From Ostreococcus lucimarinus (Eukaryota), in the NCBI GenBank assembly GCA_000092065.1, contig CP000595.1: 64,000 bases of DNA; one strand, written 5' to 3'. Each line of letters starts with the position of its first letter. Position 1 is the stretch's first letter. The notes under the pieces were generated by a model. The model made no database searches and was not told the DNA's origin. It saw nothing but the letters and a program-made list of their open reading frames with translations. Of this stretch, positions 1,681 through 28,835 are shown piece by piece. The position numbers and the translations under genes were made by a program.

Positions 1681-4600
1681 CTATTTTCTTGCCGCGTGGT
1701 ACAGCTCAATGTAATCCAACGCGGGTCTGTTCCATGAGAAATCGCACGACATGCAGTTTGCTTGCAAGGCGTGGAATTTTTCTATGTCGTTGTAGAACAG
1801 ATCAATGGCACGGTTCAACGCGTAGTCAATATCGTGCGCTTCTGTACCGTCGAACTGAAATCCATTCGGTGTCATTCCTTCCCATTCAGCCTTGGCGTGA
1901 TCGTGATCGTAATCAAATACAGTGTCCGCGAGACCGCCCGTACGACGAACGACGGGAACGGTGCCATATCGCATCGCAATGAGCTGAGATAAACCACACG
2001 GTTCGAACATCGACGGCACGAGAATCATATCGGAACCAGCGTAGATCAGGTGCGATAACGGTTCGTCAAAGTACAAGTGCAAGGCGGCATCGTTGAAATG
2101 GTTCTGTTTCAAAGCATTCGCCATGTCTTCAAACTCGCGCTGCACGTTCGGATCCGGGGCGCTTCCGAGCAGCACGACCTGACAACCTCGCTCGAGCGCT
2201 TTGAAAATGGCGTGCTTGATCAGATGAATTCCTTTTTGATGCGTAAGACGCGTTACGACGCCGATGAGCGGTACGTCGCTCTTGTTTGAAATGTTACTCC
2301 TCGAGCACAAAGCTGCGCGACAAGCCGCCTTGCCTTCAGCAACTGTGTCTATCTCATATGATACCGGTAAGCACTTGTCATTCGCTGGATCCCAGATATC
2401 GGGATCGATCCCGTTCACCACGCCGTGGAATTTTTGGAGTTGATGAGAGATGGAGTCGTGACCTGAAATCTCTTGCGCGTACGATCTCGACACCGTTGTC
2501 CCAATTTGACTGTAATCCATCGCCTCGCGGATCAAGCTTTGACCAAAGTCGAGGTTGTGAATGGTGAACACCACTCGAGGGTTACCTAAGCCATAGTTGT
2601 GATAGTCTTCCCAGTACACCTTGGCCACGGGTGCGGTTTGCCAATCGTGACAGTGAATGATGTCGGGCTGTCGACCGCTTTGCAACATCCATTCCAAAGC
2701 TGCTCGACTAAAGTATCCAAATCTCTCGGCATCCGTCAAAGGAATCTCCAAGTAGTCGGTACCGTAAATCATGCCAACCTTGAACATACCATTGTCTGGA
2801 TCGATGAAGTAAGTCTTCACTCCCTCTACGGTACCGCTGAAAACGTGGTTGTAACAGCCACCCCACTGAAAGCCTTCCTCCTCCTTCAAGTCTTCGATGA
2901 GATCGTACTTGAGGACGTCGTATTTCGGAAGAACGACTTCAACTTTGTGCCCTTCCGCTTGAACAGCCAATCCGAGTGATGTGACAACATCACCAAGGCC
3001 ACCAACCTTGGCGATTGGAGCCATTTCGACGCTCACGCTCACGACGTGAAGCGGCTTCTCCACCACGGCGACACCTTTTTCATCCTTGCCTCCGATCACG
3101 GGAATGTGATAGTCCATGTTGTTACGGTTATCGTAGTGAGCTCCTTCGTGGTTTCCGTTGGAGAACACGAAATCCATCATGTACGCGTCGGTAGGGATGT
3201 TCAACTCAACTTCCATGCGCTTTTCGCCCTTGACAAGAACCTCAGTCATGGGGAGTTTGAAAGTCTTTTCGTGCGACCATCTGTTCCAACTCCCCACGAT
3301 AAACACGCGCTCAGACCCTTTGAGCGACGTGTTATTGGGATTATAGAACAGCTTCATGATTTTGCCTGCCTCCAACTGACCCGGCTCTGTGAAAAGTACA
3401 TGCTCTTGCTGCTTGAGCGTCACCGCTTGCGCCTTCGCCTTTGCCTCCGCTTTCGCCTTATCTCGCTTGTCCTTCTTGATCTTATCAGCCTTCTCTTTTG
3501 CGTGTCGAGCAGTCGTAATTTCTTGAAATCGTTGCAAAACTGAACTCATTCGCGCAATCTCGAGTTTTTGCGAAGCGTTGCGAACCGGAGCGTGGAAATC
3601 TGCGCGGTCGGCGTTGTCGTAAATGGCACCGCCGTCGCTAAAGACAAAATCCATCACAGCGGCAGTTGCAGGCACATCGACCGTCGCGATGAATGTATCA
3701 TCAGCGCCAGTAGACTTTTCCATTCGCACTTGCTCGGCACCGGTCCAGTCATTCGAGCCGTAGTGCATAACAATGGTATTTTGGCCGTGAAGAACTCTGT
3801 TGGTGGGGCAATAGCGCACCGTGACGGGCATACCGACGACTGGTACCGCAGGTTCAAGACTCCAGAGGTTGGCATCGCTCGGTGTCGAGCCGTCCAAGTG
3901 TCGCGAAATCCCAGAAAACTTGGCTGATACTTCATTCGTGGCGATTTCCCAGTCCTTCGCGGCCATCGGGATCGCCGCCGCAAGTTCCTTCGCCTCGTCA
4001 TACGCGACTTGCAGCTCAGCGGATAATTCCTGTTCCATACGGAGCTCTTCATCGAGTTCGATAGTGGAGACCGTGTTCTTTTGACTTTTGGCCAGTTCTT
4101 CGGCCGCGAGGGCTTGAAGCTTGGCTTCGGCAAGAGCAGCAGCCTTGACCTTGGCTTCGGCCTCTGCCACGGCCTTTGCCTTAGCCTCCATCTCAGCAGC
4201 GGCGGCAGCTTCAGCTTCGGCTTGAGCGGCGGCAGCTTCAGCTTGAGCTTCGGCTTGAGCGGCAGCAGCTTCGGCTTTGGCTTGAGCGGCGGCAGCTTCA
4301 GCTTGAGCTTCGGCTTGAGCGGCAGCAGCTTGAGCTTCGGCTTCGGCTTGAGCGGTTGCGGCTTGAGCTTCGGCTTCGGCTTGAGCGGCGGCAGCTTGAG
4401 CTTCGGCTTCGGCTTGAGCGGCAGCAGCTTGAGCTTCGGCTTCGGCTTGAGCGGCGGCAGCTTGAGCTTCGGCTTCGGCTTGAGCGGCGGCAGCTTGAGC
4501 TTCGGCTTCGGCTTGAGCGGCGGCAGCTTGAGCTTCGGCTTCGGCTTGAGCGGTTGCGGCTTGAGCGGCGGCTTCTGTGTTGACGGCGACGTCGATGATA

Positions 4601-5922
4601 TCTTCATCAGTTTCTTCAACTTGCACGGTTCCCATTTCGCTAGTCTTTGTCGTAGACTTGCTCAATAAGAAGGCTTTCTCAGCTTTCTCTGCCGCTCGAA
4701 GTCTAGCTTCCAATACTTCGCGTTCTTGTCGCAACTTTTTCTCTTGCATGAGAAGCTCTTTGAGAGCGGCGCTCGCTTCATCTTTTCCGCTCGTCGCGCG
4801 CTCTTCAACTTCAGTAAACTCAACGGGAGCGGGTGGCGTCTCCACAACTTCGGAGACGACGGGCTCGCATGCTGGCTTCTGCGGATCTCGTGCCTTCGCT
4901 CTCGCCTCTGCATCTGCTCTTATCTTTGCCATCTTGGCATCCACCTGCGCTCTCACTCTGGCTCGCGTGTCTGCTTTCAACTTCTCCAACGCCGCGGCTT
5001 TCTCCTCTGGTGTTTTGGCGACAAATTTCGGCGCAGTTTTCTTTGCTTTTGCGTCTTCTTTTGCCTTGGCTTCCGCGAGACGCCGCTCCTCTTCGGCGGC
5101 CTCAGCCTTGGCGGCTCTTTTAGCTTCCATCGCCGCGCGAGCTTCGCTTTCAGCCTCGGCGGCGGCGCGCGCCTCGAGCTCTCGTTGCTCAATCGCCTTT
5201 CGAGCCGCAGCCTTCTCTCGCTTCTCCCTCAACTGTCTGTTCTCCTCCTCGAGCGCTCGAAACGCCATCAAAGACTGCCGCTCCGCCTCCAGTCGCCGCA
5301 ATTCCCGCTCCATCTCAGCCTCCTCGTCGCCCTCCGCCGCGCTCGCGCTCGGCGCCATGACCACCTCCATCTTCTTCGGCACCACCCCCTGCACCCCCCC
5401 GAACGCCTCTCGCGCCCGTATCTCGCTCTTCAGCGCCGTTATCTCCCCCCGCAGCGCGCGCACGTCCGCCGCTCTCGGCGCCCCCCCGTCCTCGCTCGGC
5501 GCCAGCATCGCTCGCAGCGTCGTCTCCAGCCCCTCCAACCGCGTTCGCAGTTCCTCCGTCGCGCTCCCTCGCGCGTCGTCCGTCACCGCGCGCGTCATCG
5601 CCCGCTCCCGTCGCCCGTCGTCGCGTCGTCGCGTCCCCGTCGTCGCGCCTTTTCGCATCCATCGCGTTTCCGTCGCGTTCGCGCGCGTTCGCCCCCTCGC
5701 GCGCGCCGTCGCGACGGCGTCCGCGCGCGTCGCGATCGCCGCGCCGAGCGCCATCGCGTCGAGCGTCGCGCGTCGCGCCTTCGCGCGTCGTGCGTCGCGC
5801 GCGTCGGCGTCGCGCGCGTCTCGTCTCGCCCGGGTGTGTGGTGTGGATAACGCGGCGTCGCGCGATCGCGCGGCGTCACTATACATGGGCGTTCGTACGG
5901 CGAATCGGGCGTATAGTAACAT
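1681..5922 (-). CDS. Starch synthase III-like: N-terminal coiled coil with Ala/Gln/Glu repeats, two CBM53 starch-binding modules, GT5 catalytic domain
   Basis: The C-terminal half has the GT5 glycogen/starch synthase signature KVGGLGDVVTSLG...VVLPKYD plus a GT1-type C-domain. Two CBM53 modules show the SWNRW / GSNDWTG signatures. The N-terminal roughly 650 aa is heptad-rich (EAE/KAK). The start is uncertain: the 5922 ATG lies inside a duplicated 61-bp repeat, and in-frame alternatives are 5886 (MYSDAARS) and 5754 (MALGAAIATRAD), per the start finding at 5880-6011. Confidence 0.8.
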   Translation of the reverse strand: MLLYARFAVRTPMYSDAARSRDAALSTPHTRARRDARDADARDARRAKARRATLDAMALGAAIATRADAVATARARGRTRANATETRWMRKGATTGTRRRDDGRRERAMTRAVTDDARGSATEELRTRLEGLETTLRAMLAPSEDGGAPRAADVRALRGEITALKSEIRAREAFGGVQGVVPKKMEVVMAPSASAAEGDEEAEMERELRRLEAERQSLMAFRALEEENRQLREKREKAAARKAIEQRELEARAAAEAESEARAAMEAKRAAKAEAAEEERRLAEAKAKEDAKAKKTAPKFVAKTPEEKAAALEKLKADTRARVRAQVDAKMAKIRADAEARAKARDPQKPACEPVVSEVVETPPAPVEFTEVEERATSGKDEASAALKELLMQEKKLRQEREVLEARLRAAEKAEKAFLLSKSTTKTSEMGTVQVEETDEDIIDVAVNTEAAAQAATAQAEAEAQAAAAQAEAEAQAAAAQAEAEAQAAAAQAEAEAQAAAAQAEAEAQAAAAQAEAEAQAATAQAEAEAQAAAAQAEAQAEAAAAQAKAEAAAAQAEAQAEAAAAQAEAEAAAAAEMEAKAKAVAEAEAKVKAAALAEAKLQALAAEELAKSQKNTVSTIELDEELRMEQELSAELQVAYDEAKELAAAIPMAAKDWEIATNEVSAKFSGISRHLDGSTPSDANLWSLEPAVPVVGMPVTVRYCPTNRVLHGQNTIVMHYGSNDWTGAEQVRMEKSTGADDTFIATVDVPATAAVMDFVFSDGGAIYDNADRADFHAPVRNASQKLEIARMSSVLQRFQEITTARHAKEKADKIKKDKRDKAKAEAKAKAQAVTLKQQEHVLFTEPGQLEAGKIMKLFYNPNNTSLKGSERVFIVGSWNRWSHEKTFKLPMTEVLVKGEKRMEVELNIPTDAYMMDFVFSNGNHEGAHYDNRNNMDYHIPVIGGKDEKGVAVVEKPLHVVSVSVEMAPIAKVGGLGDVVTSLGLAVQAEGHKVEVVLPKYDVLKYDLIEDLKEEEGFQWGGCYNHVFSGTVEGVKTYFIDPDNGMFKVGMIYGTDYLEIPLTDAERFGYFSRAALEWMLQSGRQPDIIHCHDWQTAPVAKVYWEDYHNYGLGNPRVVFTIHNLDFGQSLIREAMDYSQIGTTVSRSYAQEISGHDSISHQLQKFHGVVNGIDPDIWDPANDKCLPVSYEIDTVAEGKAACRAALCSRSNISNKSDVPLIGVVTRLTHQKGIHLIKHAIFKALERGCQVVLLGSAPDPNVQREFEDMANALKQNHFNDAALHLYFDEPLSHLIYAGSDMILVPSMFEPCGLSQLIAMRYGTVPVVRRTGGLADTVFDYDHDHAKAEWEGMTPNGFQFDGTEAHDIDYALNRAIDLFYNDIEKFHALQANCMSCDFSWNRPALDYIELYHAARK
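4195..4575. repeat. Coding tandem repeat, period 33 bp (about 9-10 copies), encoding AQAEAEAQAAA units in the SSIII N-terminal region
   Basis: Near-perfect repeats of gcttgagcggcggcagcttgagcttcggcttcggc are visible on the + strand. The minus-frame translation is AQAEAEAQAAAAQAEAEAQAAAA... Confidence 0.85.
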
Positions 5923-7515: not shown

Positions 7516-9174
7516 TTAATCGACATACTCAGGTACTGAGTTTAGGACTTCATCGAGCTCGGTTCTAAACTCTTCCTTGGCTCTGTTCGTTTTACCGCCG
7601 ACGACGATGGCGGTTTCCTCCTGAATGGCCCATATTTGCGAATGCGAGAGCAAGCTGAGGAACGACGTCACCATCAGCCCGGCGAACCCAGCGTATACGA
7701 GTGGAACCCCTGGATCAGTTTTCAACTCCAAGCCCGTACTTCCCTTCACGTCACCGAGCATGAGCTTGATTCCATCGACGACGATCGGTTTCTTGCTTTC
7801 AGGACGGCGGACGCCCGCAAACGCGCCCTTGCTGTCGTAAATCGCCACGCTTTGGAAATCCCGAGCGACGAGAGAAATGCCTCGCCGCTGGTCATCGTCG
7901 AAACTTAATGGTAAAAACGTGCCCCATATTCGGCCCTGAAACCCTCCTTTGCCTTCTAAAGACGCCATAGGAAGGACGTATGTGTTTTCAGTTTCTGTCT
8001 CGCCATCTGCGCCGGGCTTTGCGACAGTGACTTGCATGGATGAAAGCGCCCAATCCGTTTGATACATCGTCACCCCGCCCGCTCTCAATGGAACATTCAC
8101 TGATATCGTCTTTCTAGACATTTCTTTACCGTTGGGATCGACCACGCTCAGATCGGAATAAAATTGCGACACCTGCCCGTTCGGAAGGTAGTCAATCGTG
8201 AAATCGTTCACCTGAACGCTCGATTTCGCGATGCCAGGCATGGATGACAGCAGCGAACCGCGTGTCAAACCGGAGGCGATTTCAAATGAAGATCCATCTG
8301 GGACCATCACCGATCCACTCAGTCCTCCAAGACCGCTGTACGCCGCTCCGCCGAGGGTGAACAACAACGCCGCGTGCACGCCGATGGGCGCTAGTCGCCC
8401 TATCAATCCCTTGAACGCATACATTTTCTTCCCTTTGATGAAGACTTGATACCCGCGATCGGCTAATAAATCGCTGAAATCGCTCAGTCTGGCTCGAGGA
8501 ACAGATTCTGCCTCTTCCATGGCGAGCAAAGTCGCGCGTCTATCCAAAAATTTCCATTTGGCTGAAACTTTCCAAACGGGCCACTGCCTCGTCACCGTGC
8601 ACGCCGTCAACGACGCCCCTAAGAGGCCTAATAATCCTAAAAAGTACCACGTCGTGTAAATGTGATCCAATCCAAGGTCGAGAATCAAAGGAAAGTCTAT
8701 GAAACCAAGGCTCTTATTCTCCGTGGGATAGTTTTCGACGTACCACGCAAACGACTTGTTCTGTTCAATCACCGTCCCGAGCGCAGAGAATCCCGCGATG
8801 ACGAGCAATTCTCCTATCGCGAGTGGCAACGACGAGAGTGATTTCAGCGTCTTTTTCCCCATCGACGGCAGCTCGCGCTCGAACAGCCATTTCGAGAACG
8901 CCGCGTCGTCGCCGTCGCCGTCGCCGTCGCCGCGTCCCGGTCCGGGCGACGGCGCTCCCTTCGCCGCTCGCTCCGTCGTTTCCGGCCTTCGCGCGTTCGC
9001 GAGCGTTCGCGCACCGCGTCTCCGATCGACCGCTCGTCCGCGGACCGCGGCGCGGCGCGCGGGCGCGCGGTGCGCGGCGTTGAGCGGCGGCGACGCGAGT
9101 GCGCGACGACGCGCGCGCGCGGCGACGGCGACGACGACGGACGACGACGACGCGGGCGACGCGTACGCGCGCAT
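7516..9174 (-). CDS. CCS1: Cytochrome c biogenesis protein CCS1 (ResB-like), plastid system II
   Basis: ResB/CCS1 architecture: an N-terminal TM pair (LAIGELLVIAGFSALG; TTWYFLGLLGLLGASL), a large lumenal domain and a C-terminal TM (GVPLVYAGFAGLMVTSFLSLL). The N-terminal roughly 100 aa is Arg/Ala-rich transit peptide. The track start 9180 is GTG; the ATG is at 9174. Confidence 0.7.
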   Translation of the reverse strand: MRAYASPASSSSVVVAVAARARRRALASPPLNAAHRAPARRAAVRGRAVDRRRGARTLANARRPETTERAAKGAPSPGPGRGDGDGDGDDAAFSKWLFERELPSMGKKTLKSLSSLPLAIGELLVIAGFSALGTVIEQNKSFAWYVENYPTENKSLGFIDFPLILDLGLDHIYTTWYFLGLLGLLGASLTACTVTRQWPVWKVSAKWKFLDRRATLLAMEEAESVPRARLSDFSDLLADRGYQVFIKGKKMYAFKGLIGRLAPIGVHAALLFTLGGAAYSGLGGLSGSVMVPDGSSFEIASGLTRGSLLSSMPGIAKSSVQVNDFTIDYLPNGQVSQFYSDLSVVDPNGKEMSRKTISVNVPLRAGGVTMYQTDWALSSMQVTVAKPGADGETETENTYVLPMASLEGKGGFQGRIWGTFLPLSFDDDQRRGISLVARDFQSVAIYDSKGAFAGVRRPESKKPIVVDGIKLMLGDVKGSTGLELKTDPGVPLVYAGFAGLMVTSFLSLLSHSQIWAIQEETAIVVGGKTNRAKEEFRTELDEVLNSVPEYVD

Positions 9175-9375
9175 GTTCACGACGTCGACGCCGAGGACGC
9201 TCGAGCTCGCTCGCGGCGTCGCGCGTCGTCGTGTGCGCGTCGTCGCGCGTCGGTGTCCACAACCCTGGCGCGCGCGCCGAGGCGAAACGCGGGCGCCGGA
9301 ACGCGAATGAAAGAATGAGAAATGAATTCGATGAGGAGCGCGCTAGGAAACTATGCATCTTAATCTATCTAAAAT

Positions 9376-14961: not shown

Positions 14962-17802
14962 TTATACGGGCGTACCGCCCCGATCTCGATCTCGATCTCG
15001 ATCTCGATCTCGATCTCGATCCGCGGACTCGCGCGTGAAGCCGTCTCGACCGTTCTCGTTTGGGCAATACTTTGCCACGCCGTCGTCCGAGATGGGCACG
15101 ACAGATTGTTCGCCGGCGTCGTAACTGATCGACGGCGACCACACGAGCTGGATGGTTTCGCCGACGTTCTCGAAGGAGTGAATCCAACCGCACGGCATGA
15201 ATAAAATGTCGCCCGCCTCGACGACGGCGCCGAAGCCGCGCGAACGCGCGATTTTGGGTTGTTTGTCCAAGTCGACGTTGAAGGCGTTCCCCAGATAGAC
15301 GGGATTGTACAACTCTTCACCGCCGACGCGCGCGGAGAGCGGGTAGAGGTTTTCCTCATCGGCGCGATCCCAGACGACGGCGCGTTTCGAGCCTTGAACC
15401 ACTAAAACCATCACGTGAGCCGGTTTGGCGTGATGATGCGCGTGATACGCTCGAACGCCATCGCCACTGGCGAAGAGCATAAACTTTTTGAACTCCGTAG
15501 GTCGCTCGCGAAAGAGTATCTTGGAGATATACGACCAGTCTCCGCGCAATTTCGTTTCGACAGCTGCTTTGACGCGTTCGGCGAGTGCCGGACATTGTTC
15601 AATAATGTGCCACGAGTGTACGCTCGGTGGCCATAAATTATCCGCTGGGTGTAAAAAGTCCACGCCGCGTTTTCTGGCTATTTTGGATTCCCCCATCAAC
15701 TCACTATCGAAAAAATCTCTCAGTGTTTTAATCTTTCCTTTGCCTTCGAGAAAATCCAACGTTTCATTCAGCGTCAAACCTCGTGTCGTTTCGAGACGTT
15801 CGGAAAGATCTCGCAAAAGTTTTTGATGCGTCGTTTTCGTCATAGACTGGAACAATGGCACTATTTTCGACCCCAAGTCGGCGAATGCATCGCCGCATAA
15901 ATCTAAAATGAGCTCTCGCGTCACGACGCTTCGTAGCACAGTTGCAAGGTTAGCGTTTTCGATCACCACTGGTTGCCCTTCCTTGACGTATTTCCGCTCG
16001 AACGCGTCAATTGATAGTGTAGATGCGTCAACGCGCTCGATGTTGTTCCACTGAAAACTCGGATCGCTCGACGACAGCAGCAGCGGTATATCATCATGTT
16101 GCGGCGCCTCGACCGTCGGCGCGCGTTTGTTTCGTTGATGATCCTCAACTCTTTCGCCACGACCGAGGTTGGCTTGATCATCTTGAATTCGAACTAAAGA
16201 CTCTAGGAAAGACGTAACACTTTGGGCATCGTTCGGTCCGATGAAACTCTGTGCGATCGCATTCAACTCCTTATGATTTCGCACATACGGCCCAAAGTGT
16301 GACGTTTTCATCTCGCGTCTGGCTTTTAGTGACTCTTCCACGGGCCACGGACAATTTAATGGATCGCAACACGGCGCATTAATGTCATACTGACTTTCTG
16401 CTTGAAGCAAAGTAGTCTTAAGCGCACCCTCAAAGCCGTAACGATTCAATAAAGTCGCGCGATCTTTCAGAAAGGCGACATCTTCTTCGGCGATGCTGTA
16501 CTTTTCCATCAACTCCTCTATTGTTGCGTCAGTGACTTCCGCCAAAAACGCGCTAAACGTGGAAGGAAACGTGCGGTGAATGGCACCCCCCTCCACCCAA
16601 CATCTGTAATCTAAGATAGCTCCGATAGTCGGTGACCAGTTTCCGTTTTCAAGCTCCACGATGCACGCCGGTTTAGTTTCGTTGGCAGACTTTGCGTGGC
16701 ACCTTTCCATCCACGGCAAAGTTTTTTCTTTCTCATAGATCACATAACCTGCAACATAGTGCCAGTGATGGCGCGTCCCGGGAATGCTCACTGTGCTGGT
16801 TTCGTCCTCACGTTTCAACATGTCCTCGTTGTCTATCAGCATCAACGACCCTTTGGCTTCGTCGATGAAGATGTTGAATATATTTCTGTCGTGGTTACCA
16901 AGGAGGAAGTCCATCAGAGTCATCCCTATGACGTCCTCTCGCTTAAGTCGCGATACAACGAGAAAAAGTTCTTTCGTCATCATGTTCTGGCCTGGTCTGG
17001 CACCATTGATATCAGTTGGCGCGATTCCCTTTGCCCAGTCTGTGACGAGAACGTGAGTGTTTTGCTTTCCACCAAGAGAACGTGTGTCGCGTGGCGTGAA
17101 AAACTTCAAAGTCTTTGCCTCCGTAGGCGACACAAGTCGCCCGAACCCCATTGTTTCGATCAATCGATGGATGGCTGATATCCTTTCCGGGGATCGATCA
17201 CGCTGACTGTGGAAACCGCCACACGTTTCGTCAACCGGCGTCGCGTTTGCGTGTTGACGAAATTGTCCACGAATACCGCACCAAGCCTTGACGCTCACCT
17301 TTTTCCCTTCGCTCGTAACTCCTCGCAACACCATTGCCTCAGATTTGCCGACATACCTCCCTGGATTTCCCGCGTCGATGCGCTCAACTTTGACGTCGCA
17401 GTCGCAGCGCTCGCACCACCCACGCGAGTCGACGACGTCGTCTTCGCCCAGCTCGGAATGAGGCACGCATGTGGAGCAAGACGAACACGTCTCAAAGCTC
17501 GCGCGTGTACGCTTGTGATTTGTGTCTGCCCCGCGTTCATCGTCACTATCTTTCCGCACGTCGGCGTCGGCGTAATCAGCGTCAGCGACACCATCGGCGA
17601 GTTTCAGCGCTCTAACAGCAATCGTCTCGCGACGCGGCGACGTCCTCGTGAGTGCGACGGTGAGCACGCACACGAACGCGATAGAATAACACGGTGGTTT
17701 CCACCGCGCGGGCCTTCGACGCCTCTTCGTGGCGTGATGCCACATCGGAGGCGCGGAGTGACGTCGGGACGGCGACAAGCGAGAAGGCGTCGTAGAACGC
17801 AT
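14962..17802 (-). CDS. Type-II membrane protein with a FAM20/Four-jointed-like secretory-pathway kinase domain fused to a C-terminal JmjC (cupin) domain and an (RD)n tail
   Basis: N-terminal signal anchor PCYSIAFVCVLTVALT. Fam20-like catalytic motifs: MDFLLGNHDRN (compare FDFLIGNMDRHH) and LMLIDNEDM (DN metal motif). JmjC signatures: HAKPAHVMVLVVQGSKRAVVW and GDILFMPCGWIHSFENV. The track start 17844 is TTG; ATGs are at 17802 and 17745. Confidence 0.55.
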   Translation of the reverse strand: MRSTTPSRLSPSRRHSAPPMWHHATKRRRRPARWKPPCYSIAFVCVLTVALTRTSPRRETIAVRALKLADGVADADYADADVRKDSDDERGADTNHKRTRASFETCSSCSTCVPHSELGEDDVVDSRGWCERCDCDVKVERIDAGNPGRYVGKSEAMVLRGVTSEGKKVSVKAWCGIRGQFRQHANATPVDETCGGFHSQRDRSPERISAIHRLIETMGFGRLVSPTEAKTLKFFTPRDTRSLGGKQNTHVLVTDWAKGIAPTDINGARPGQNMMTKELFLVVSRLKREDVIGMTLMDFLLGNHDRNIFNIFIDEAKGSLMLIDNEDMLKREDETSTVSIPGTRHHWHYVAGYVIYEKEKTLPWMERCHAKSANETKPACIVELENGNWSPTIGAILDYRCWVEGGAIHRTFPSTFSAFLAEVTDATIEELMEKYSIAEEDVAFLKDRATLLNRYGFEGALKTTLLQAESQYDINAPCCDPLNCPWPVEESLKARREMKTSHFGPYVRNHKELNAIAQSFIGPNDAQSVTSFLESLVRIQDDQANLGRGERVEDHQRNKRAPTVEAPQHDDIPLLLSSSDPSFQWNNIERVDASTLSIDAFERKYVKEGQPVVIENANLATVLRSVVTRELILDLCGDAFADLGSKIVPLFQSMTKTTHQKLLRDLSERLETTRGLTLNETLDFLEGKGKIKTLRDFFDSELMGESKIARKRGVDFLHPADNLWPPSVHSWHIIEQCPALAERVKAAVETKLRGDWSYISKILFRERPTEFKKFMLFASGDGVRAYHAHHHAKPAHVMVLVVQGSKRAVVWDRADEENLYPLSARVGGEELYNPVYLGNAFNVDLDKQPKIARSRGFGAVVEAGDILFMPCGWIHSFENVGETIQLVWSPSISYDAGEQSVVPISDDGVAKYCPNENGRDGFTRESADRDRDRDRDRDRDRGGTPV
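14981..15022. repeat. (CGATCT)7 microsatellite encoding the C-terminal RDRDRDRDRDRDR tail of the kinase/JmjC protein
   Basis: cgatctcgatctcgatctcgatctcgatctcgatctcgat. Confidence 0.9.
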
Positions 17803-17879
17803 GGGAACTAAAGCGACGCGTGCGTAACGAATGCGCTGCTTCAATCACGATAAGTCTATCTATTGATTATTGCTTAATA

Positions 17880-20800
17880 CTATTTTGGGGATTCCCGCGA
17901 GTTCGTGGAGTGCGCGGTGAGATGGCGCTCGTCCAAGGCGATTAAACGTTCGCCGCGTCGGTGTGTTCGAGCTTTCCAGCGCTCACGTAAATCTTGCAAC
18001 TGTGAGCTCAAAGCGCCGTGTTGCTGGCGAATAGTAATCGTAGAGTCAGCCTTGATCGTTTCAAGTAAATCGTCGTCGGCGAAAGGAAGACGTTGACCAG
18101 TCATGCTTCGAAGTTGGATGCGTTCGCTTTCCTTTGCCATTTTCTCTTGATGAATGATCTCTTCGTCTCTCTTGGCGTCGAATTCGTCGACAATCGCCTC
18201 TTCAAATTCCAAGTCGCGAATAGCGCGCTTGATGAGGCCTTCTTCGCCCTCTTCGCGGAACTGGCGAACCAACGTTCGGGCAAAATCATACCATGCCCAT
18301 GCGTGCAGGATGAACAACAAGGCCGTGATGAGATCGACAAAAGTCGAGCCTTGTCCACCTTGTTCGCCTGATTGTTTGAAAATCAGTCCGCCGGTGAATG
18401 TTGCCATAGTAGCAAGTAAGCCATGTGTCTCGATCTTTGCGTACTTTTCGCCGGCATACGGTTTTGCGACGATGTGGAATACAAAGAAAAGTTGCAACAT
18501 ACAATTCACCGTGTATCCACCAATGACTGCACTTCGTCTAGATACGATCACTATGAAGATCAGGATGAATTTTCTCGCGAATATGACCCATTCCCACCAC
18601 CACGCGGACTTGACATTGATTCCCTTGAAGAGCAAACCGAGACGATATTGCACCATTGCTGAATCGTGCTCGCCGACAATGTCTTCTCCGCGAGCGAGCT
18701 GCAGCAAACCGTATGGAATACCGACGATATACAGTATAGCCCAAACGATGACCATAAACAAGTAAAGTGAGTAGGCGGTGCCCCGGCATTGGACCGAATA
18801 GTCGGATACAAAGTGTCGATCGCTGTCGCCAGACGTACCAGTGCACTGCGTGAACTCAGCCAAATATTGAACAAGGGTGGGATAGAGAAGCCACAGAGTC
18901 GCGACGAGCCATGATATTACTATGTCGTAAGCTCTGATGTTTCGCACTTCTTCAAGACCGACATCGTGCTTGTTCACTTTATTCGTGTTACCACTATCGA
19001 TGGCGTTTGTTTCTTCATCTTCAGCAGAATCATTTGCCTTTGTCTTCTTCGTGGCTTCCACTCTAGCTTGGGCCGTTGCCTCTCTCAACTCTTCGACGTA
19101 CTTGATAACCGTGAAGATGATGAACAAGAATATCATCAAGCCTAGTGGGAGCAACTCGTGAAACAGTAGATTTCCGTAAAACTTCCAGCCAATGGCGCAC
19201 TTTGCTGACGCCGACCGTATGTCAGGTAACGAAAGCTTCTCGGCGATAAGTAAGAATGCTTTCATCGAATCCGGCCATGCGAGGTCTAAATTTTTCGCCA
19301 ACGCTGTCATTTGTAAATAGGTGACAAACGATTTTATCATGCCGACGACTTGTGAACTTCGGCGTTGATTGACAACCCGAATGAGCCACACCAGCAACAA
19401 TATCCAGAGAAAGTTGACGACGACGATCGGAAAGTTGAGCACTCGATATGCTCCTGCCGAACAATCGTAACATTTTGGTGGATATGCTTCTCGAATGGCG
19501 TGGTACGCATAACCATTCGCACAAGCTGCGCACATAGCACCAGTGTACCCTGCATCAAGACATGTGCTGTTTACGCCGCCTAGGCACGCGTCAGGGTACG
19601 GACACGCGCGAAATTTCAGCGTTTGTCGGTCAAATCTACTGAAACCAGGAAGCGCTTCGACATTTTCGAGCTCATCACCGTAACATTTTGCACCTTTCGG
19701 GCATGCCATACATTTGTAATCATCGAGTGGGAGTTGTCGATAATAGCTCTCGAATGGGACACTCGTTTGAGAGATGCAGTGGCAGGAACTCTTGCTCACG
19801 TGACCAAGGGCGCCTAAAAGTTGCACTCCTGACTGTGCTTGATATGTTTGCCTCAATCTGCCGTCAACTCGCGAAGTATCCATGGAGATTGGGCACGACG
19901 TGCATGCTCCGTCACCGTGCGCCACTTTGTAGAAGCCATTCTTGCACGGCACACACATGCCATACGGGTGAAGAGCATCGAGCCATCGAGATGACCCAGA
20001 TGTAGCTGTCTTATATAGAGTTATATTCGTTTCGACATAAATGGTATCGATATCTTCAGTATATCCCGTGCCTCCACTAATGTCGGCGGTGAAGCCAGGA
20101 ATGCACTCGCACACGCCAGAGCGAAGCACGCTGTTCGGTTTGACTGTTGAGCAATTCATGACCGTCGTTGGAGTTGAAGGTACGATACTCACATTCAACG
20201 TTGAAGCCGAAAAATTCAGCTCATAGGCATTCGCGCGCTCACCGATGATTGTGATTGAATCGAATTTCGCCAAGCCGTTCACCATCGCCGCCTCTGTCCC
20301 TGAAATGCTCGCCACAGCGGGCGATACACTGACCGTAAGCGTCGTATTGATATCGACGCACACGTTTCCTACAGAATCGATCGCCGCGATGACTGGTGCA
20401 GGCGAAAGTGCGAAGTCATTTTCGTTTATGAAGGGAGGTGCCGTGACGACGGCCAACGCTGTCGGCGCGCCAGGGACTACGGTGAACTCCAACATGTCAG
20501 TCTCCAGCACAGGATAGAGCGCACCAGGACATCGACTTGAGCCACATGATGAAGCGAATCGCAAGCGATAGGTCCCAGCTAATGCATTTTGAATATGCAG
20601 ACCGACATTATAGTGTGTGTCGGGCGCAATACCACTATACCCAGCCTCCCTGCAATATGATGGTGCGGGGTTGGTGTACACCACTCTGTACGTGTAAGCA
20701 CCAGTCGTGGGATTACTGGAGACCACAGTCCTCGGGCTAGAGTCAAGTGAATCTTTGCACCATCCCACTCCACCATTTACTGCGAGAAGAGATCCATCCC

Positions 20801-23800
20801 ATTCGGCTTGCAAGGTTGGTAGCACACTTGCCCGTGGTTGATCCTCCGCTGGCACGAAAGAAAATAGCTCAACCGTGATGTTACGCGCTTCGGTGTCCCA
20901 CATCGAGCCCACATGATAACCGCCAGGATCAGTCATTTGCACGACAAAGTCACGAAGATCCAGGGTTTGCGCTGCGATATATTGTGCAGGATCCCGACAC
21001 AAACCTCGGTCGACACGTGTGAACGAGTTACCGGTGCACGTGTCAAGCGCCGCTGGGTACCCAGCGCTGTAAGTCAGTTGTGTGGAGACCGAATCGAGAC
21101 CCGCTGTAGAAAACGTCAATGAGTACGTTCCGGTGCACGGTCGATAGAATACGATATCATCAAACACCGCTGTGCCCGCAACGATAGTCTGAGGTGTGTA
21201 TGATACATTCGTCTCAAAGTTGCAAGCGCTCACGACCACGCGCTCCGCCTTTACAGAAACTTCGTAATTTAGGTTGAGCGCATTCAAGCCTGCATCGACC
21301 ACACGAATCTGAATCATACTCAATTTTACTTTTTTTGCCGTGGAATACGCAGTCTGCAACGCGATTGCTGCACCGCTGGCAGGTGACGTGAAAGTCTGAA
21401 CAATTAATCCACCATTAATATTTTGCATGAAAAAGAAAAAATAAGTAAGCCTTACCGGTGAGATGAAAAGCGCACTTGCAGTGCCAATCGTAATCGTAAA
21501 TGTACGAGTCGCGGGCGCAACGCTGAGCCCTAACGCGGTACAATTGTCGCAGTTGAAAGAAATCACATAATCCCCGATCTGTAATTAATTGTGTGTGAGG
21601 ATGAAAGTTCTAATGAAATCTGTCATCAATGGGAGCGTACCTCTGGGGCATTGATCACTGTGTCACGAAGTAGTGTACTGTCGGTTCCCGCCGCTATGAC
21701 GCCATTTCTCCCGCTCGTCGCAAACGTATGCCTACATTTTGAATAAAATTAATTAATTCCGGTTATGAATTAATTAGAATCGAAACGTACCTTTGACCCA
21801 CGATACTGGCGATAATACTGTACTCGTGAGTGTTAAGCGACCCGAAACGATTACCTGCGTCATCTGCGATCGCAATTTCGAAAGGGCCGAGGGTTGTTGA
21901 TGCCGTCGCCGGGTATGATCCTTGTGGTGAATTTGCCACGACCAGTTTAGCTGGATCTCCTAACGCCACTGTTACCGCATAAGTCGCAACGGCCTTGCCG
22001 TTGAGATAAAATACGATATCGTGCTGCTGCGCAGTCGGCGCGAGCAGCACGAGGTTCTTAAACTCAACGACGCCGGGTGTGCCGCCCTGTGTATTTAAAT
22101 AAGTTAATTAATTGTTCTCCGTGAAATAAATAATTCATCGCGTTCGAGCATAGTTGACTCACCTGAGTTGCACACGTCGTAGTGCTACCACACGATATCG
22201 CAAAAGTTTCCCCTCCTATCAAGGGATTAATTCCCTGTGGATAAGCCGCCAATTCGGCGGTTTGGCAGACAACAAATATTTGTGCCCCGGTCGGCGAAGC
22301 CGAAATAAAATTCCCTCCGCCATCGTAAAGTCGCCCAACTAGAGGACTAGAAGCGTTCGCAATCGATGTTTCTAGCTTAGATTTGAATGTTCCACTACCT
22401 TGTGTTTCGTCGAGGATCAATTGTGCCGCATTTCCCAAAGTCACGGAAAAGTAGTACTGTGCACCCAGCAGACCCGGCGAGTGGATGTCGACGGCGTACG
22501 TACCGATGTACGGCTTGGCGATGTGTAGTCCATCAAAATAGCTTCCACCAGACTCAGTGTTGGCTTCAAAAGTCGCCACTGATGTACATGATACTCCATG
22601 CAGTGTCGACGATGTACTGGCAAGCCCAGCACATTCGCATGCGTTGCCTTCACCAGTTCTTCTGCACAAGGTGACATTTTGCGGCGATAAGTGCACACGT
22701 CTGCTAGGACATGTCTCGCAAGCTTTCGTTTCAAGATCATCGACGGGATTGAAAGCTCCGTCGAGAATAGTCACCACGACTGGGTACATTGCAACGTCCG
22801 ACGCGGCGCGATATTGATGACAAGTGCAGTTGACATTAGTTTGGCACGCTCCGTCGACTGTGGCGCAGTACGGCAGTAAGCCGAGGTGATTGGATCGCCC
22901 TGCCGTGATCTCTAAATCCACGCTTGCAGACCTCAAACTCGAATCGGACGACACGAAAGTCAAATTGTACGTTCCTTTCTGCGGCTTGACGAGATGCAAA
23001 CCTGAGAACGTCGCAGTCCCAGCGCTCGAAGTGGTTTCCACAAGAGAGCCGGTCCTCGGGTACAGTGAAGTATCTGTGTATACAGTAAGTACCGACGTTC
23101 TTGCGATTGTTGTCGCATTTGCACCGAGTATGAACGGATGAATTTCGACGTTTGTGTCATTCATCATCGCCGTCAACGTAACTCCGTTCGGCAAAGTCCC
23201 CGTCGGCGACTCATTTCCCGCCCCATCCACCGGTACGACGACGAAGTCATCCAGAGGCACAGAGTGCCCGGCTGAGTATGCTGTTGCCTCGGATAGTTGG
23301 ATGCTTTCAGTGAATGATGGTGAAAATTCTAAGACTTTGGGGCTGGTGACCTTGAATCCGCTCACGGCTCCAATCAAAACGCTCACCGTGAGAACTGTAC
23401 TTTGTAGCTTTCCCACGCGCAACTCGCCACTCACTTCAGCGCCAGTCTCAATGACATTAAGGGTGTGCGTACCGACTTTCGGTGAATTTGCAATCAAACC
23501 CGTGAAAGAAACTTGACCGTTGCCATTCGTGAACATCGCAGTCGTTCCAGAAAGTTTCAAAGTTTCGCAAGTCACTTGAATGGTACGATTTGGCGCTACT
23601 GCATCCGTGGTTGAGTGACGATCCGCGGTTCCCATTGAATTGCCGAGCATATCTTGAACGTATACCGTGAACGAACCCAATCCTACAGATTGATCAGCTG
23701 TTACCGATGATAATATCGATTGACTCGAAGCTAGTTCATATCCAGCATCTCCAGCTAGCACATTCACCACTTGGAGAACGGGTGTTAAATCGCCAGACGA

Positions 23801-26800
23801 GAATGTCAATCCGAACTCCCCGACGACAGGTCCGACTACTTTGAGATCAGAAAATCGCCATACACCGCTGTCGTCTCGTTTTACTTGCAAAGTACCATCC
23901 AAAGTGATACCAGCCGATGCATGTACGGTCACAGTACGCGGCGTAATTTCCGCCGCACCGACAAAGTTATTCCCCCCGTCGTATGCGCCAATGATAATTT
24001 CACCTACGGATTGCTTGGGTGCCTCGGCGTAAACTGTTCTCTTACTATACGTCCCATTTATACGAAGGTAAGACGGTTCGCCGATCTCCATTTGCATAAT
24101 TGAATGCGCGCGATATCGAACTCCATTCAACGTCGTCGTAAACTGAACAATGTACTTTGAAGCCTCGCCAAAGTCTCCTCGTGTGGCATCGCTATACGTG
24201 ATATCGTCCGTGGATCCTACAGCTCGTGAACCAGAAGGTGGCATAGCGACAAGTCTGAGATCTGAAAATGATACTCGACCATCATTAGTCGTCTTGTTCA
24301 GCGTTCCAGTGAGCTGGGCTCCGATACTTCTCTCTCTGTAGTCTTCGTTGCTGTTGAGTGTACCCGTCACGAGTGACGCTTGTACGGTGACGTCATCAAG
24401 AGATAGCGTCTGAAGCATACTTCCACCGATGTCAACGATGTCGACTGTCAAATGTCCGATCGATACGTTTCGGGCCGCGTCGAGCACGACGACATCTGTT
24501 GGAAATAACGTAGCACTTGATATCATAGAATTCTCCGTCGCCGCGCCGGGTGTCACCTTCAAACCACCGCTCGAACCTGGTGTTACGGATAAATAGGCGT
24601 GTGCAAGTACACCAAGGTCATCACTACATGCACCATCATCATTGGTACAATCGGTTGCGGTAAAAGTGATCACGTATTCCCCAGCGGTTGGTATCGAGGA
24701 TAGCTGTGGAGTGAATGTTGCGATGCCGTCCGAAGTCTGCACTGATGACGTTGCCTCGGTGATAGCGACCTCTGACGGCCCAGAAATACTCGCCGAAATT
24801 GTGTAACCTTTCGTACCTCCTTGACCACGGTCATAGTTGATTTCAGTTCCATCGATATCCACAAGTCCAACCTTGAACGTTCCAAGTGAGAAATCTGTCG
24901 CGGCAACTCGAGCTTGATGCGAATCCGGTCCACTCAAGAGCTTAACTCCAACTGGTGGTCCATGAAGCTTCAAAATCCCTCCACTAACGTAATCAATACC
25001 GTTCAGTGCAACTGCGACCTGCGCATCTTGCGGTTGTCCGTTCGTAAGCCATGGAAGCGGACTCCCAACTGGATTGGCGCACCTTCCATTGACTACATTG
25101 CACACAGGACACTTGATTTCTGACGAACTAACGAACACCGCACTGGTCACACTCGTCGTGTTATCGTTGAACTTACATTTTAAATCGGGCGAATTCAGAA
25201 ACGGACCTCCGAGTATGCGAAGCAGTACTGGCGCGAGATCGGCATCCTCGCCTGTGAGAAGAACCTTGGCGTCATCTGAACCAATCTTTGTACTAATTAT
25301 GACGGCTGGATCGTGATAACGTAGATATATCTGACCAGAGTTCCACAGCGAGTTGGTCCAAATGCTTGTTGGATCGCTCGAATCGGTTGGTAATCCATCG
25401 AACGATATTTGGACTTCGCTATAACCTATAGTGGAGGAGTTTGAATTTGACGCCGACGGTGCCATGCATGAGAGCTCTGTCGCCGAAACATAAGTTGCTG
25501 GCGACCAAGATGTCTTCGAAAACCCATTATTAGCGTCATAAGTGTGTCCAAACCTACATGAAATCGAATGACTCATTCCACTGGCAAGGGTAGGCGAATA
25601 AAAGCCAGATCCATGAATTTTTATCGGCGTTCCAGACGTGAGCGCGCTGATGTGAGTCGGCTCGATCCCCGAAACGATCACCGTGGAGTACTTTGTGTAC
25701 GTCGTACTCGCCGCAGAACTCACCGCGAACACGCTGCGCTCGCCCGGTACGGCGCTGATGCCACCGATGGTGTGGCTTTCTTCAAATGTCCCCACACGCT
25801 TGAAACAACCGCTTATACAAGCACTAGACGTGTCCGTACCCCCTATTTCGATCTTGACGATCCGACTCTTACCGCTTTCACGCGATCCCACGGCCCAGTA
25901 CATGAAATCTTTTTCTCCTGCCGTCGCTCCGGTTTGAACGGTAGCGCTCAGAGCATCACGCTCTCCGAGCGCTGCGTCAAGAGCAATCACGGCGAGTGGA
26001 CTATCGCCTTCAGCAAAATTCAAGTCAAACATGAAGATGCATGCCGCGCGATTTTTACACCCCGGACAGTCGCCGTCTCGACCTGAAGTGCCCACGTATC
26101 CATAGCCGTTGTGCTTTGTGATCGCAGTAAACGTCGAAAAGCGTCCTTGCTTTGAATCGAGCTGCCCTTCGCACGCCTCGAGCACCTTGACGTTTGTTGA
26201 GTCCAAATACATTTCAACCCCATCGCCGTCACGAGTCCCTGAGTTTGTATTCACCTTGAACAAAGTAGGATAAAAGGTTTTGCCATCGGAGTCATCCAAG
26301 AGGGCAGATCCAGCGAAGATGACATAGTTGACACCTGTTTGAGTATGCGCCACACTCGTCTCCAACCTCATGGCGTCCGGGGCAAGCGAACATGTGGGGC
26401 ATTTAGTGCTCAGTAAACCCGGAGCTAAGAAGTTTATTCCTTTATCGTTCAAACTGCCGTCGACGTGACCAATGACGCTTCGCGACAGACCGTCTTCGTG
26501 CGTGGCCTTGTACACTATCATGCCGTTGGCTGGGTCTGTGCCCATGGCATCCAAAATGTACTGCTCTTTTGAGAAAGTCGCACTCGCCTGACCATTTGTC
26601 AATGAACTGAGAACGCAGTTCGCCCACTGCGATGAATCTGATGAGCATGTAGTACCGACATACTTGAAAAGCGAAAATCTAAACTGATTTGCCGTGGTCT
26701 GATGCCACATGTTCACTGGCACGACGACGCCCGTCAGCGCTGTCGACAAATCGGCAGCCATTTTAGCGTACACTCCGTACCAACCGCGCGACTTCTGAGG

Positions 26801-27379
26801 ATCCACATGTCCATATGCTCTCGGATGCTTCGCTGCGCACCCGCTCGAGATCCCAATACCGCAAAAATTTGGCAAAGGTGTTATCGACAATGGCACCGCG
26901 CCCGTTGTCTCTCGTCTCGGTCCGTTCGTTTGTCCCCAACCTCTCGCCGTCACTGCGTTTGAGGTAAAAGTCTCCGGATACCTCGGATCGACTTCGATCA
27001 CTCGCGTTCCATTAGCATCTTGCGCGTAGACGTAAATTACGTTCTTTCGCGTGTCTACCATGACGTCTTCGACGTACTTTTCGTCGTACGCCGTCCCGGC
27101 GGTGTCGTACTCGTACCCCGCCGTCCCATCCAAGCGCGACTCTTTCACCACCGATGGCGTGGGAACATCGCACGCAAGTCCTGCCCATCCTGCCTCGCAC
27201 GCGCACACGCCGTCTAAGCCGCATCGCCCCTGTCCAGCGCTCGCCGAGCACCCGCGCTCGCAACGATTGAACGTCAAGCCTTGACATGAGTGCGCCAACG
27301 ACGCGATGACGACGACGAGCGCGACGGTGACGAGCGCTCTGAACCCTCGGCGCGAGCTTGTACGACCGTTACCACCCAT
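17880..27379 (-). CDS. Giant (about 3080 aa) receptor-like membrane protein, 5 exons: complement join(22163..27379, 21791..22086, 21641..21731, 21456..21578, 17880..21395)
   Basis: A signal peptide is followed by an EGF-like module and a long extracellular region of beta-sandwich (IPT/TIG-like) repeats. Next come GCC2/GCC3- or ephrin-receptor-like Cys modules (CVPCKNGFYKV..CTSCP), then 7-8 TM helices and a cytoplasmic coiled coil. ATG at 27379 (MGGNGRTSSRRGFRALVTVALVVVIASLAHSCQG). The three track ORFs 22064-27634, 21763-22050 and 17880-21566 are joined in frame. The four introns are 76, 59, 62 and 60 nt with GT..AG ends; the track ORFs read through them (for example VRLTYFFFFMQNINGGLIVQ is intron 4 translated). 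Confidence 0.6.
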
Positions 27380-27920
27380 CGTCGCGCGGCGAGCGGCGCT
27401 TGAAGTCGCGCGTTCCCGCACGCTCACCCCGCGTCCCGCGCGATGGCCGCGGCTTCCGACTTCACGAGACGATGCGACGCGCGCTCGAGCGCGTCGTCGG
27501 CGCGAGCGGCATGGACGACGAAGCGAATGAGCGCTGAGACGAAGTTTGTGTGTTATACACGCACCGCTCGGCGTCGACGCGGTGGAGTGACGCGGCGACG
27601 CGTTGACGCGAGACTCGACCACCAACGACTCCAAGCGACGAATGGAATCGTCGCGGCCGCCTCGGCGACGCGGTCGTTGGTTCGTTTGTGAGTTTATTTT
27701 CGTTTCAACGAGTTTTTACGCTTTGAAGAGTAATAATGGACTATTATTTTAGATATTGAAAAAGGAAAGTTGCAAACCCCAAGTCATGTCGCGAATCGCC
27801 CGTCTCGGCGCCCAAAGGCGCTTTGAGACGACGAGGTCGAAGACGCTAAACGTGCGATTTTGAGACGACCGCTCGATCGCGTGCGACGAATTTGAGTGAA
27901 ACTTTGAAATAATTTGAAAT

Positions 27921-28835
27921 TCACGCCTCAAGTGACGCTTGAGAGAGGTTTCTATACATTTCCAGAGATTTAACGGGATGGTACAGCGCGTCGCGGCGAA
28001 TCGGCGCAAGTCTGGGTACCGCGTCAAAGTCAAAGGCCGGACGCCAGCGCATGTAAGCTACGTCGGGACCCAAATCACGGAACGAGAATGTGTCGGAATT
28101 CACCGTGAGGAAAGTTGGTAGGAATGCCTCGTGATGTCCGCTGCTTCTGGTAGAAGTGGAGAGGTGCGCCACCGCGGCGGCGGCAAAGTTTCGCGAGATC
28201 CGAAACGCGGGCAACAAGGCACTTTGCTTGCACCAATTCGGAAGGCCTCGACAGTACGTGCAAGATGGCCAGTGATTCCATGCCGTCTTGTTTGAGTACC
28301 GAAATGTTGTGTTGAAAGCGATGAGATCACTCGAATCTGATTCGTATTTCTCAAAAAGCGTTTGCCACGAGCCGGTGAAAACCACGTCGGGCTCGATGAT
28401 CCAGCCGAAGTCGATCCACGCTTGATCTGGCTGCGTGAGCCATCTCAAGGCTCTTGGCTTCACTGAAGCACCGTATATTCCTGAGAACAACTCGAACGAA
28501 TGACTTCCGTAACGCAATCGTTCCACCTCCCGAGAGGCTTGCACGACTGTCGCGTCGTCGGCAGTTGACGTGTTGAACCAAGGGCGAAACTTGCCTTCAT
28601 AAACCAACACTTGGGCAGAGATTCGTGCAGAGCGAGTGTTCGAGAAAACCGTGTCGCGAGCGAGGCGGTGCAGATCGTCTAGTTTCCTGTCGTTACCAAC
28701 CGTCAGAATTACGACTGTGTGTACGCTACTTTTTGTTTCTGGAAGGGGGTAGAGAAAGGCGAAGAGAAACGAACCACACACGAGCACAAGGAGCAGCCAA
28801 CGCTTAGTCAGTTCACGAGCCCGGCGCTTGCGCAT
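27921..28835 (-). CDS. Type-II membrane (signal-anchor) protein, putative Golgi glycosyltransferase-like, family unknown
   Basis: N-terminal anchor WLLLVLVCGSFLFAFLY followed by a roughly 270-aa lumenal globular domain. ATG at 28835. No confident motif was found. Confidence 0.4.
   Translation of the reverse strand: MRKRRARELTKRWLLLVLVCGSFLFAFLYPLPETKSSVHTVVILTVGNDRKLDDLHRLARDTVFSNTRSARISAQVLVYEGKFRPWFNTSTADDATVVQASREVERLRYGSHSFELFSGIYGASVKPRALRWLTQPDQAWIDFGWIIEPDVVFTGSWQTLFEKYESDSSDLIAFNTTFRYSNKTAWNHWPSCTYCRGLPNWCKQSALLPAFRISRNFAAAAVAHLSTSTRSSGHHEAFLPTFLTVNSDTFSFRDLGPDVAYMRWRPAFDFDAVPRLAPIRRDALYHPVKSLEMYRNLSQASLEA

Follow-up and report, generated by a model that had tools for sequence, protein, structure and literature searches.

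A predicted secretory-pathway membrane protein of Ostreococcus joins an unnamed kinase-like domain to a JMJD8-like JmjC domain

A stretch of 64,000 nucleotides of the Ostreococcus lucimarinus genome (assembly GCA_000092065.1, contig CP000595.1; hereafter the window) encodes, on its minus strand, a protein of 946 residues in which an N-terminal signal anchor is followed by a Cys-rich module, a protein-kinase-like domain, a poorly conserved linker, a JmjC/Cupin_8 domain and a short repetitive tail (Table 1). Both folds, the catalytic residues conserved in them, the single anchor and the fusion itself are features of this gene and its orthologues, and the fusion is restricted to Ostreococcus. On balance, we think it probable that this Ostreococcus-specific gene encodes a bifunctional modifying enzyme of the secretory-pathway lumen, that is, a type-II membrane protein in which a kinase-like and a JMJD8-like domain are paired. 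The initial annotation of this DNA, which was made from the letters alone, had described one open reading frame (ORF) with an N-terminal anchor, a kinase core, a C-terminal JmjC/cupin domain and a tail encoded by a microsatellite. That architecture is borne out, and all the motifs that it quoted are found at the expected positions, but the kinase family that it named has to be revised.

The host ORF extends from 14962 to 17844 (minus strand), with its first ATG at 17802, although M20 of the 946-residue protein could serve as an alternative start. In relatives with 99%, 88% and 67% identity the ORF is kept at full length with both domains in frame, and indels in the interior of the aligned orthologues are of whole codons only, even in the linker, from which it follows that the two domains are made as a single polypeptide. 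At 67% identity, the orthologue is that of O. tauri (CEF96948.1 / XP_003077921.2), which goes in databases only by the names 'unnamed product' or 'Cupin-like domain-containing protein'. Neither domain has a second copy within the window.

Table 1. Features of the fusion gene in the window (all on the minus strand; residue numbers are those of the 946-residue protein).
Feature	Residues	Position	Strand	Basis or remark
Complete coding sequence	946 residues + stop	14962..17802	minus	ORF list; full-length orthologous ORFs at 99%, 88% and 67% identity
Signal anchor, PPCYSIAFVCVLTVALT	36-52	17647..17697	minus	sole hydrophobic 17-mer with Kyte-Doolittle value >1.5
Cys-rich module, ETCxxCxxC...CxxCxC	103-136	17395..17496	minus	Cys invariant in orthologues
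Protein-kinase-like domain, unnamed algal secretory family	137-535	16198..17394	minus	
VxK Lys, equivalent of the ATP-phosphate-binding Lys	K172	17287..17289	minus	invariant in 25-sequence family alignment
Catalytic loop, DFLLGNHDRNIFN	D298, D305, R306, N310	16873..16911	minus	all four invariant in family (25 sequences)
IDNED, equivalent of the metal-binding DFG-Asp	D324	16822..16836	minus	aligns with Fam20 LDN motif
Inter-domain linker	536-584	16051..16197	minus	lower conservation, frame kept; 2-residue indel versus O. tauri
JmjC / Cupin_8 domain	585-920	15043..16050	minus	
His cluster, HAHHHAKPAH, candidate HxH metal ligands	787-796	15415..15444	minus	
GDILFMPCGWIHSFEN, distal metal ligand	H875	15166..15213	minus	aligns with FIH WWH279 region
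Hexanucleotide microsatellite encoding (DR)7	C-terminal tail	14981..15021	minus	Tandem Repeats Finder: period 6, 6.8 copies, 100% match

The C-terminal domain, rightly called a JmjC/cupin domain at the outset, has the double-stranded beta-helix fold and scores 44.8 bits against Pfam Cupin_8 (PF13621), which exceeds the gathering cut-off of 27.4. When solved structures were searched with a profile of eight sequences, the best match was FIH (1.7e-7), followed by fly JMJD7, JMJD6, TYW5 and JMJD5; no viral relatives of the domain were found. Seven residues (R784, H787, H789, H791, H796, K806 and H875) are invariant down to homologues with 34-38% identity, the histidines of the cluster forming the pattern Y-H787-x-H789-x-H791-x4-H796, and the four cysteines of the domain are invariant as well. 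K806, which aligns with the lysine of FIH (K214) that binds the C5-carboxylate of 2-oxoglutarate (2OG), is invariant in all eight sequences, and the segment containing H875, GDILFMPCGWIHSFEN, fits the classical consensus of cupin motif 2, G(X)5PXG(X)2H(X)3N, exactly.

The proximal part of the metal site is where the domain departs from canonical oxygenases, since the HxD/E motif could not be identified by alignment to FIH or JMJD5. Ungapped extension from these two proteins brings H791 into the His position and K793 into that of the Asp (JMJD5 D323, FIH D201); the latter column has K in the window and in O. tauri, E in the relative with 88% identity and R in stand-alone homologues with 34-38% identity. 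An hhalign alignment with FIH (whose sequence was verified to be identical to 1h2k) starts only past the HxD region, over which pairwise alignments to FIH give three conflicting registers. In the predicted model, the strand RAYH ends at H787 and is the counterpart of FIH TPAH199, which would make H787-x-H789 the equivalent of HxD in a region where the predicted local distance difference test score (pLDDT) is below 50; the loop that follows, also modelled with low confidence, is four residues longer than that of FIH. The check that had been set beforehand, for an intact HxD/E...H iron triad, thus came out negative, the acidic position being K/E/K/R, with the distal H875 and K806 both kept.

In the JMJD8 family, which is found in animals, chlorophyte algae and stramenopiles, HxD is replaced by HxH (PMC2938197, Table 1), and JMJD8 itself resides in the ER lumen (ER, endoplasmic reticulum), keeps its signal sequence uncleaved and has a His in place of the Asp (PMC5684140). 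Because the HxHxH cluster is invariant and matches the published HxH of JMJD8, it would represent a variant metal site rather than a clear loss of one, and the most fitting reading of the domain is that of a lumenal JmjC domain like JMJD8, with H787/H789 or H789/H791 as the putative replacement of HxD. Further likenesses are that the Ostreococcus domain and JMJD8 alike fall among the JmjC-only domains of the FIH/JMJD5/JMJD7/TYW5 neighbourhood and that an N-terminal signal anchor is predicted ahead of the domain, both in the fusion protein and in a stand-alone cupin homologue (P0172) that has an anchor of its own. JMJD8 differs in being a stand-alone protein, and no JMJD8 structure is present among the solved-structure matches. 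From FIH, JMJD5, JMJD7, JMJD6 and TYW5, the Ostreococcus domain is set apart by the lack of an identifiable HxD, the longer loop, the HxHxH cluster, the four conserved Cys and its predicted lumenal location. Two other lumenal enzymes are instructive, i.e. AspH, a type-II ER membrane hydroxylase and lumenal 2OG oxygenase that is active with an incomplete, two-His metal site, and LH3, a precedent for two successive modification activities in one lumenal polypeptide. AspH and PLOD/LH3 belong to other 2OG-oxygenase subfamilies and neither has a kinase domain.

A somewhat unlikely alternative is that one or both domains are pseudo-enzymes, with the cupin acting as a binding or scaffold module and the whole protein being a fast-evolving, lineage-specific surface or secretory factor. 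A lysine at the Asp position, in a column that varies, is what such a protein might display, and so is the pace at which the gene changes. The 88% relative (L011:8312-11077) has diverged by ~12% in amino acids and ~7% in nucleotides, with synonymous and non-synonymous codon changes numbering 32 and 49 in the kinase-like domain and 18 and 44 in the cupin; the resulting rough dN/dS (ratio of non-synonymous to synonymous rates) of 0.5 to 0.8 suggests fast evolution or relaxed constraint. For JMJD8 itself, too, little is known about the function and the catalytic activity is unclear (PMC11241480). Against loss of activity stand the seven cupin residues that are invariant to 34-38% identity, the invariance of all the catalytic residues of the kinase-like domain and the example of AspH, which is active with only two protein metal ligands, both His (PMC10947486).

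The family to which the N-terminal domain belongs is barely visible to ordinary searches. Word-indexed searches with the full protein and with the N-terminal domain returned only close orthologues and one stand-alone kinase-like protein, a yield so small that an exhaustive profile search was required to reveal the family. A profile of four close sequences, run against 1.84 billion representatives, found 128 relatives, 48 of them with E ≤ 1e-10. Members with a named source come from Mesostigma viride, Cymbomonas tetramitiformis, Chlamydomonas sp. UWO241 and O. tauri (a cupin-less paralogue), all as hypothetical proteins, and across the family the names given at source are 'hypothetical', 'unnamed product' and, once, an automatic 'PI3K/PI4K catalytic domain-containing protein'. 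The members have in common a GASGAxV loop, the VxK Lys, DxLxxxxDRHxQN, LIDN(E/D), LPGT, LDYRCH, GFE and PCC, frequently preceded by an N-terminal ETCxxCxxC...CxxCxGC module, which corresponds to the one at residues 103-136, where model confidence is low.

This domain has the bilobal fold of the protein kinase-like (PKL) superfamily, and an alignment of 25 family sequences shows no change in the residues that define the latter (K172, D305, N310 and D324), D324 being the sole invariant column across 69 family members. Its catalytic loop aligns with both the DFLxGNxDRHHYE loop of Fam20 and the catalytic loop of PI3K/ATM. Judging from these residues, which lie in a Gly-rich loop, a VxK motif, a DxxxxNxDRxxxN catalytic loop and an IDN metal-binding motif or next to them, the domain probably retains activity and belongs to an unnamed PKL family of green algae and marine protists. 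Pfam offers little guidance, since at E ≤ 0.01 the 69 members match PI3_PI4_kinase (29 members), Fam20C (7), HipA_2 (3) and ABC1 (3), while most members lack a significant match and many of those scanned one by one have none even at E ≤ 0.1.

The initial annotation had proposed a Fam20/Fjx1-type kinase, and the likeness to Fam20 (the Golgi casein kinase Fam20C, the xylose kinase Fam20B and Fam20A) goes beyond an atypical protein-kinase-like fold to the DFLxGNxDR loop, the xDN metal motif and a predicted secretory-pathway location behind an N-terminal anchor. A protein made of a genuine Fam20/Four-jointed kinase of the Golgi and a JmjC hydroxylase with the canonical Fe(II)/2OG chemistry is nevertheless quite improbable. 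Its best credential is that Fam20A, Fam20C and Fam20B are the top matches when the sequence profile is compared with solved structures (E-values of 2e-5 for Fam20A, 3e-4 for DrFam20C and 1.6e-3 for Fam20C, followed by ATM at 0.04 and PI3K at 0.45), the similarity continuing beyond the DN motif into an 'LPxTQ'-like segment, and that the predicted lumenal topology is like that of Fam20. These alignments cover only ~50-60 residues, from the catalytic loop through that segment. The Fam20C family of Pfam (PF06702) reaches only 15.4 bits with the full protein and 16.6 bits with the N-terminal domain (cut-off 26.8), over residues 288-331 only, and at position +5 from the catalytic Asp there is an Asn, invariant in 25 sequences, where Fam20 has a Glu (DRHHYE). 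The loop reads DRNIFN in the window and DRHGQN in the family consensus, with the Asn opposite the Fam20 Glu in profile alignments.

Structure reverses the ranking given by sequence profiles. The comparison with solved structures (values in brackets) puts type-II PI4K first (12.6 and 12.3), then PI3Kα (10.6), SMG1 (10.4), HipA (10.1), actin-fragmin kinase (9.9), CtkA (9.8), Hydra Fam20B (9.5), CotH (9.3), DrFam20C (8.4) and C. elegans Fam20 (7.6), so Fam20 is not the nearest structural neighbour and ranks after PI4K, PI3K, SMG1, HipA and actin-fragmin kinase. A kinase fold is also what Foldseek returns, although its scores are weak, and none of its best 50 matches is a Fam20 protein. Taken together, the sub-threshold Fam20C score, the Asn in place of Glu and the structural ranking place the domain outside Fam20, and the missing canonical JmjC triad disposes of the other half of that proposal. 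The domain lies in the region of fold space shared by PI3/4K, HipA, actin-fragmin kinase and Fam20 and belongs to no named family; it would work like a lumenal atypical kinase yet is part of a separate, unnamed family. HipA, CtkA, actin-fragmin kinase and CotH differ in being bacterial or slime-mould proteins, cytosolic or of the spore coat, which have no signal anchor and no accessory motifs in common with the Ostreococcus protein.

As for topology, the segment at residues 36-52, directly preceded by KRRRRPARWK, is the one N-terminal hydrophobic segment that had been reported as a signal anchor, and it is conserved in orthologues (Kyte-Doolittle values of 2.5 and 3.5). The charge flanking it is +7 on the N-terminal side and +4 on the C-terminal side, and the Arg/Lys-rich tail before it is probably cytosolic. 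All of the 18 cysteines C-terminal to the anchor are invariant across orthologues as distant as 67% identity, and the sequon at N374 is conserved in orthologues too. Of the kinase-like family members checked, about half start with a hydrophobic stretch, which in several cases resembles a signal peptide. Another relative, P0057, a signal-anchored metagenome protein of 2055 residues from ENA, combines the same kinase-like domain with RCC1, Sulfotransfer_1, Exostosin GT47 and GT90 domains, as might be expected of a protein that modifies glycans with several enzymes in one chain. Such sulfotransferases, GT47 and GT90 enzymes reside in the Golgi lumen, where they act on glycans. Because the single anchor has the more positive N-terminal flank, the cysteines are invariant and the N374 sequon is conserved, and because relatives have signal-peptide-like segments, P0057 is fused to such domains and P0172 has its own anchor, the C-terminal bulk of the protein is predicted to be lumenal, i.e. 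in type-II topology.

The opposite orientation, to which we accord a low probability, would make the protein a membrane-tethered, cytosol-facing lipid kinase resembling type-II PI4K, with a cytosolic JmjC hydroxylase and an N-terminal segment that acts as a reverse signal anchor. A PI3/4K-type motif is indeed present (D305-R-N-I-F-N310 and I323-D-N, invariant in the family), and against PI3_PI4_kinase (PF00454) the window protein scores 24.5 to 25.8 bits, just below the cut-off of 27.1, which is passed by one relative (P0043, 29.3 bits). Such matches are limited to the catalytic loop, spanning only ~50-60 of the 241 profile positions (~50 residues), and identity to PI4K2A is only 11-12%. PI4K2A, a cytosolic, palmitoylated lipid kinase, is not among the best 60 of 72 sequence-profile matches (E ≤ 10), whereas the Ostreococcus domain is predicted to be lumenal, with many conserved Cys. 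The charge difference across the anchor, the 18 invariant cysteines and the joining of P0057 to sulfotransferase, GT47 and GT90 domains also argue against a cytosolic enzyme, and the signal-peptide-like N-termini of several family members could not be reverse anchors.

Only three lineages, all of Ostreococcus, have been seen to carry the fusion. JGI metagenomes, when scanned, yielded eight fused loci of full length, each of them Ostreococcus-like (88-99% identity), and several loci with the cupin alone, of which one is preceded by 9.5 kb of sequence and another contains two copies head to head. On the contigs recovered, of ~4-12 kb, the kinase-like domain is alone at L001 and the cupin is alone at L002, L003, L012, L013 and L015. 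The nearest kinase-like protein outside Ostreococcus (P0004, 44% identity) is alone on a 10-kb contig without a cupin, and the nearest such cupin (P0170, 38% identity) is alone on a 7.5-kb contig without a kinase-like domain. Within the genus, O. tauri also has the cupin-less paralogue of the kinase-like domain mentioned above. Cupin_8 is absent from all 68 other representatives of the kinase-like family that were scanned. Since relatives outside Ostreococcus encode the two domains singly, the fusion is a genus-level innovation that joins components which are separate elsewhere. The question, raised at the outset, of whether algal genomes have the same fusion or separate genes is answered by both, fusion within Ostreococcus and each domain alone in relatives elsewhere, and the claim that the domain combination is new stands, in that the pairing of kinase-like and JmjC domains appears new. 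The literature searched holds no mention of the O. tauri accession numbers, or of Fam20 together with Ostreococcus. Monosiga receptors that carry an extracellular MINA-type JmjC and an intracellular tyrosine kinase have an architecture unlike that of the Ostreococcus fusion (PMC2938197).

Around the stand-alone loci, three details were recorded. A gene of 343 residues downstream of P0004 was considered as a detached cupin, which would have made a split fusion, and is not one. The end of the P0004 gene adjoins a GGTACGT that resembles a 5' splice site (L001:3970-3980), with no cupin-coding sequence after it on the 10-kb contig. The head-to-head copies of the stand-alone cupin homologue lie at L012:6-482 (minus strand) and L012:788-1783 (plus strand).

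That the fusion is a gene-model artefact, in which two neighbouring genes were merged into one ORF, might be suspected from the poor conservation of the linker and from the fact that the single ORF is known here from DNA sequence alone, but it is very unlikely and close to negligible, since the junction has no stop codon either in the window or in eight of eight full-length metagenomic loci (L004-L011; 99% and 88% lineages), the genes called independently in the 88% and 67% relatives span both domains, the aligned interior has whole-codon indels only, the sole hydrophobic anchor is at the N-terminus of the whole protein, and the O. tauri models (NCBI and UniProt; 823 and 1052 residues) exceed the length of a cupin alone.

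As for the activity of either domain, its orientation, the metal ligands and the substrate, we propose that the protein would be anchored in the membrane of the ER or Golgi, its two domains facing the lumen, that (i) the kinase-like domain would phosphorylate secretory cargo, be it protein or glycan, at the expense of ATP, and that (ii) the JmjC domain would oxidise the same cargo in a reaction dependent on a metal and 2OG. By analogy with Fam20B and with the P0057 fusion, a glycan is a possible substrate for the kinase-like domain. Several points weigh against this bifunctional lumenal enzyme. In the ungapped register with FIH and JMJD5, the Asp position falls on K793, and hhalign leaves the HxD region unaligned; the cupin model is only moderately confident (pLDDT 61.8) and falls below 50 exactly at the His cluster; the rough dN/dS against the 88% relative also fits relaxed constraint; topology is predicted by simple rules; and the assignment as a whole is a computational prediction.

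To our knowledge, the kinases of the secretory pathway (Fam20, Fjx1, POMK and VLK) are considered to have arisen essentially within animals. Green algae and marine metagenomes now yield an unnamed, almost entirely unannotated kinase-like family whose members keep their catalytic residues intact and include proteins with signal peptides and with fusions to glycan-modifying enzymes. A bolder and, in our estimation, unlikely extension of the bifunctional enzyme is that this family represents a widespread and hitherto unrecognised clade of lumenal ER/Golgi kinases of green algae and marine protists, a non-animal counterpart of Fam20/POMK, and that the fusion is a Rosetta-stone link by which HxH oxygenases of the JMJD8 type and secretory kinases are seen to work one after the other on common cargo. 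Were this true, a residue or a sugar might for example be hydroxylated and the new hydroxyl then phosphorylated, and the fusion would be a first biochemical lead for the activity of JMJD8. The main value of the Ostreococcus protein is in the hypothesis that ties secretory kinases to JMJD8-type oxygenases, the fusion being a guilt-by-association clue which suggests a coupling of phosphorylation and oxidation in the lumen, on substrates common to both. Because O. tauri is a genetically tractable model alga, this idea of coupled modifications should be testable there.

The C-terminal tail is, as first described, an RD repeat encoded by a hexanucleotide microsatellite, which is a perfect array and polymorphic in length. 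There are seven DR units in the window and five in P0001, while three metagenomic loci with 99% identity (L008-L010) are 6 nt shorter and O. tauri has no tail. The motif GSKRAVVW, quoted for the cupin domain, is present in the 946-residue protein as part of QGSKRAVVW.

The fusion gene sits at the edge of a low-GC block (16000-28000), which may be the border of what we presume to be the low-GC 'outlier' chromosome region of Ostreococcus; GC content is 0.49-0.53 in this block and at 40000-42000, versus 0.58-0.65 elsewhere in the window. Directly upstream of the gene, the block contains two giant ORFs on the minus strand, one of 1228 residues (17880-21566), with weak matches to the Cys-rich Ephrin_rec_like and DUF7630 and, in its C-terminal half, hydrophobic stretches that resemble multiple membrane spans, and one of 1856 residues (22064-27634) with no Pfam match. 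Other neighbours, at 1681-5922, 7516-9180 and 29014-31620 (all minus strand), are ordinary, namely two typical green-algal genes, for a starch synthase that carries CBM53 modules and for a ResB/CCS1 protein of cytochrome c biogenesis, and one gene for a leucine-rich repeat protein.

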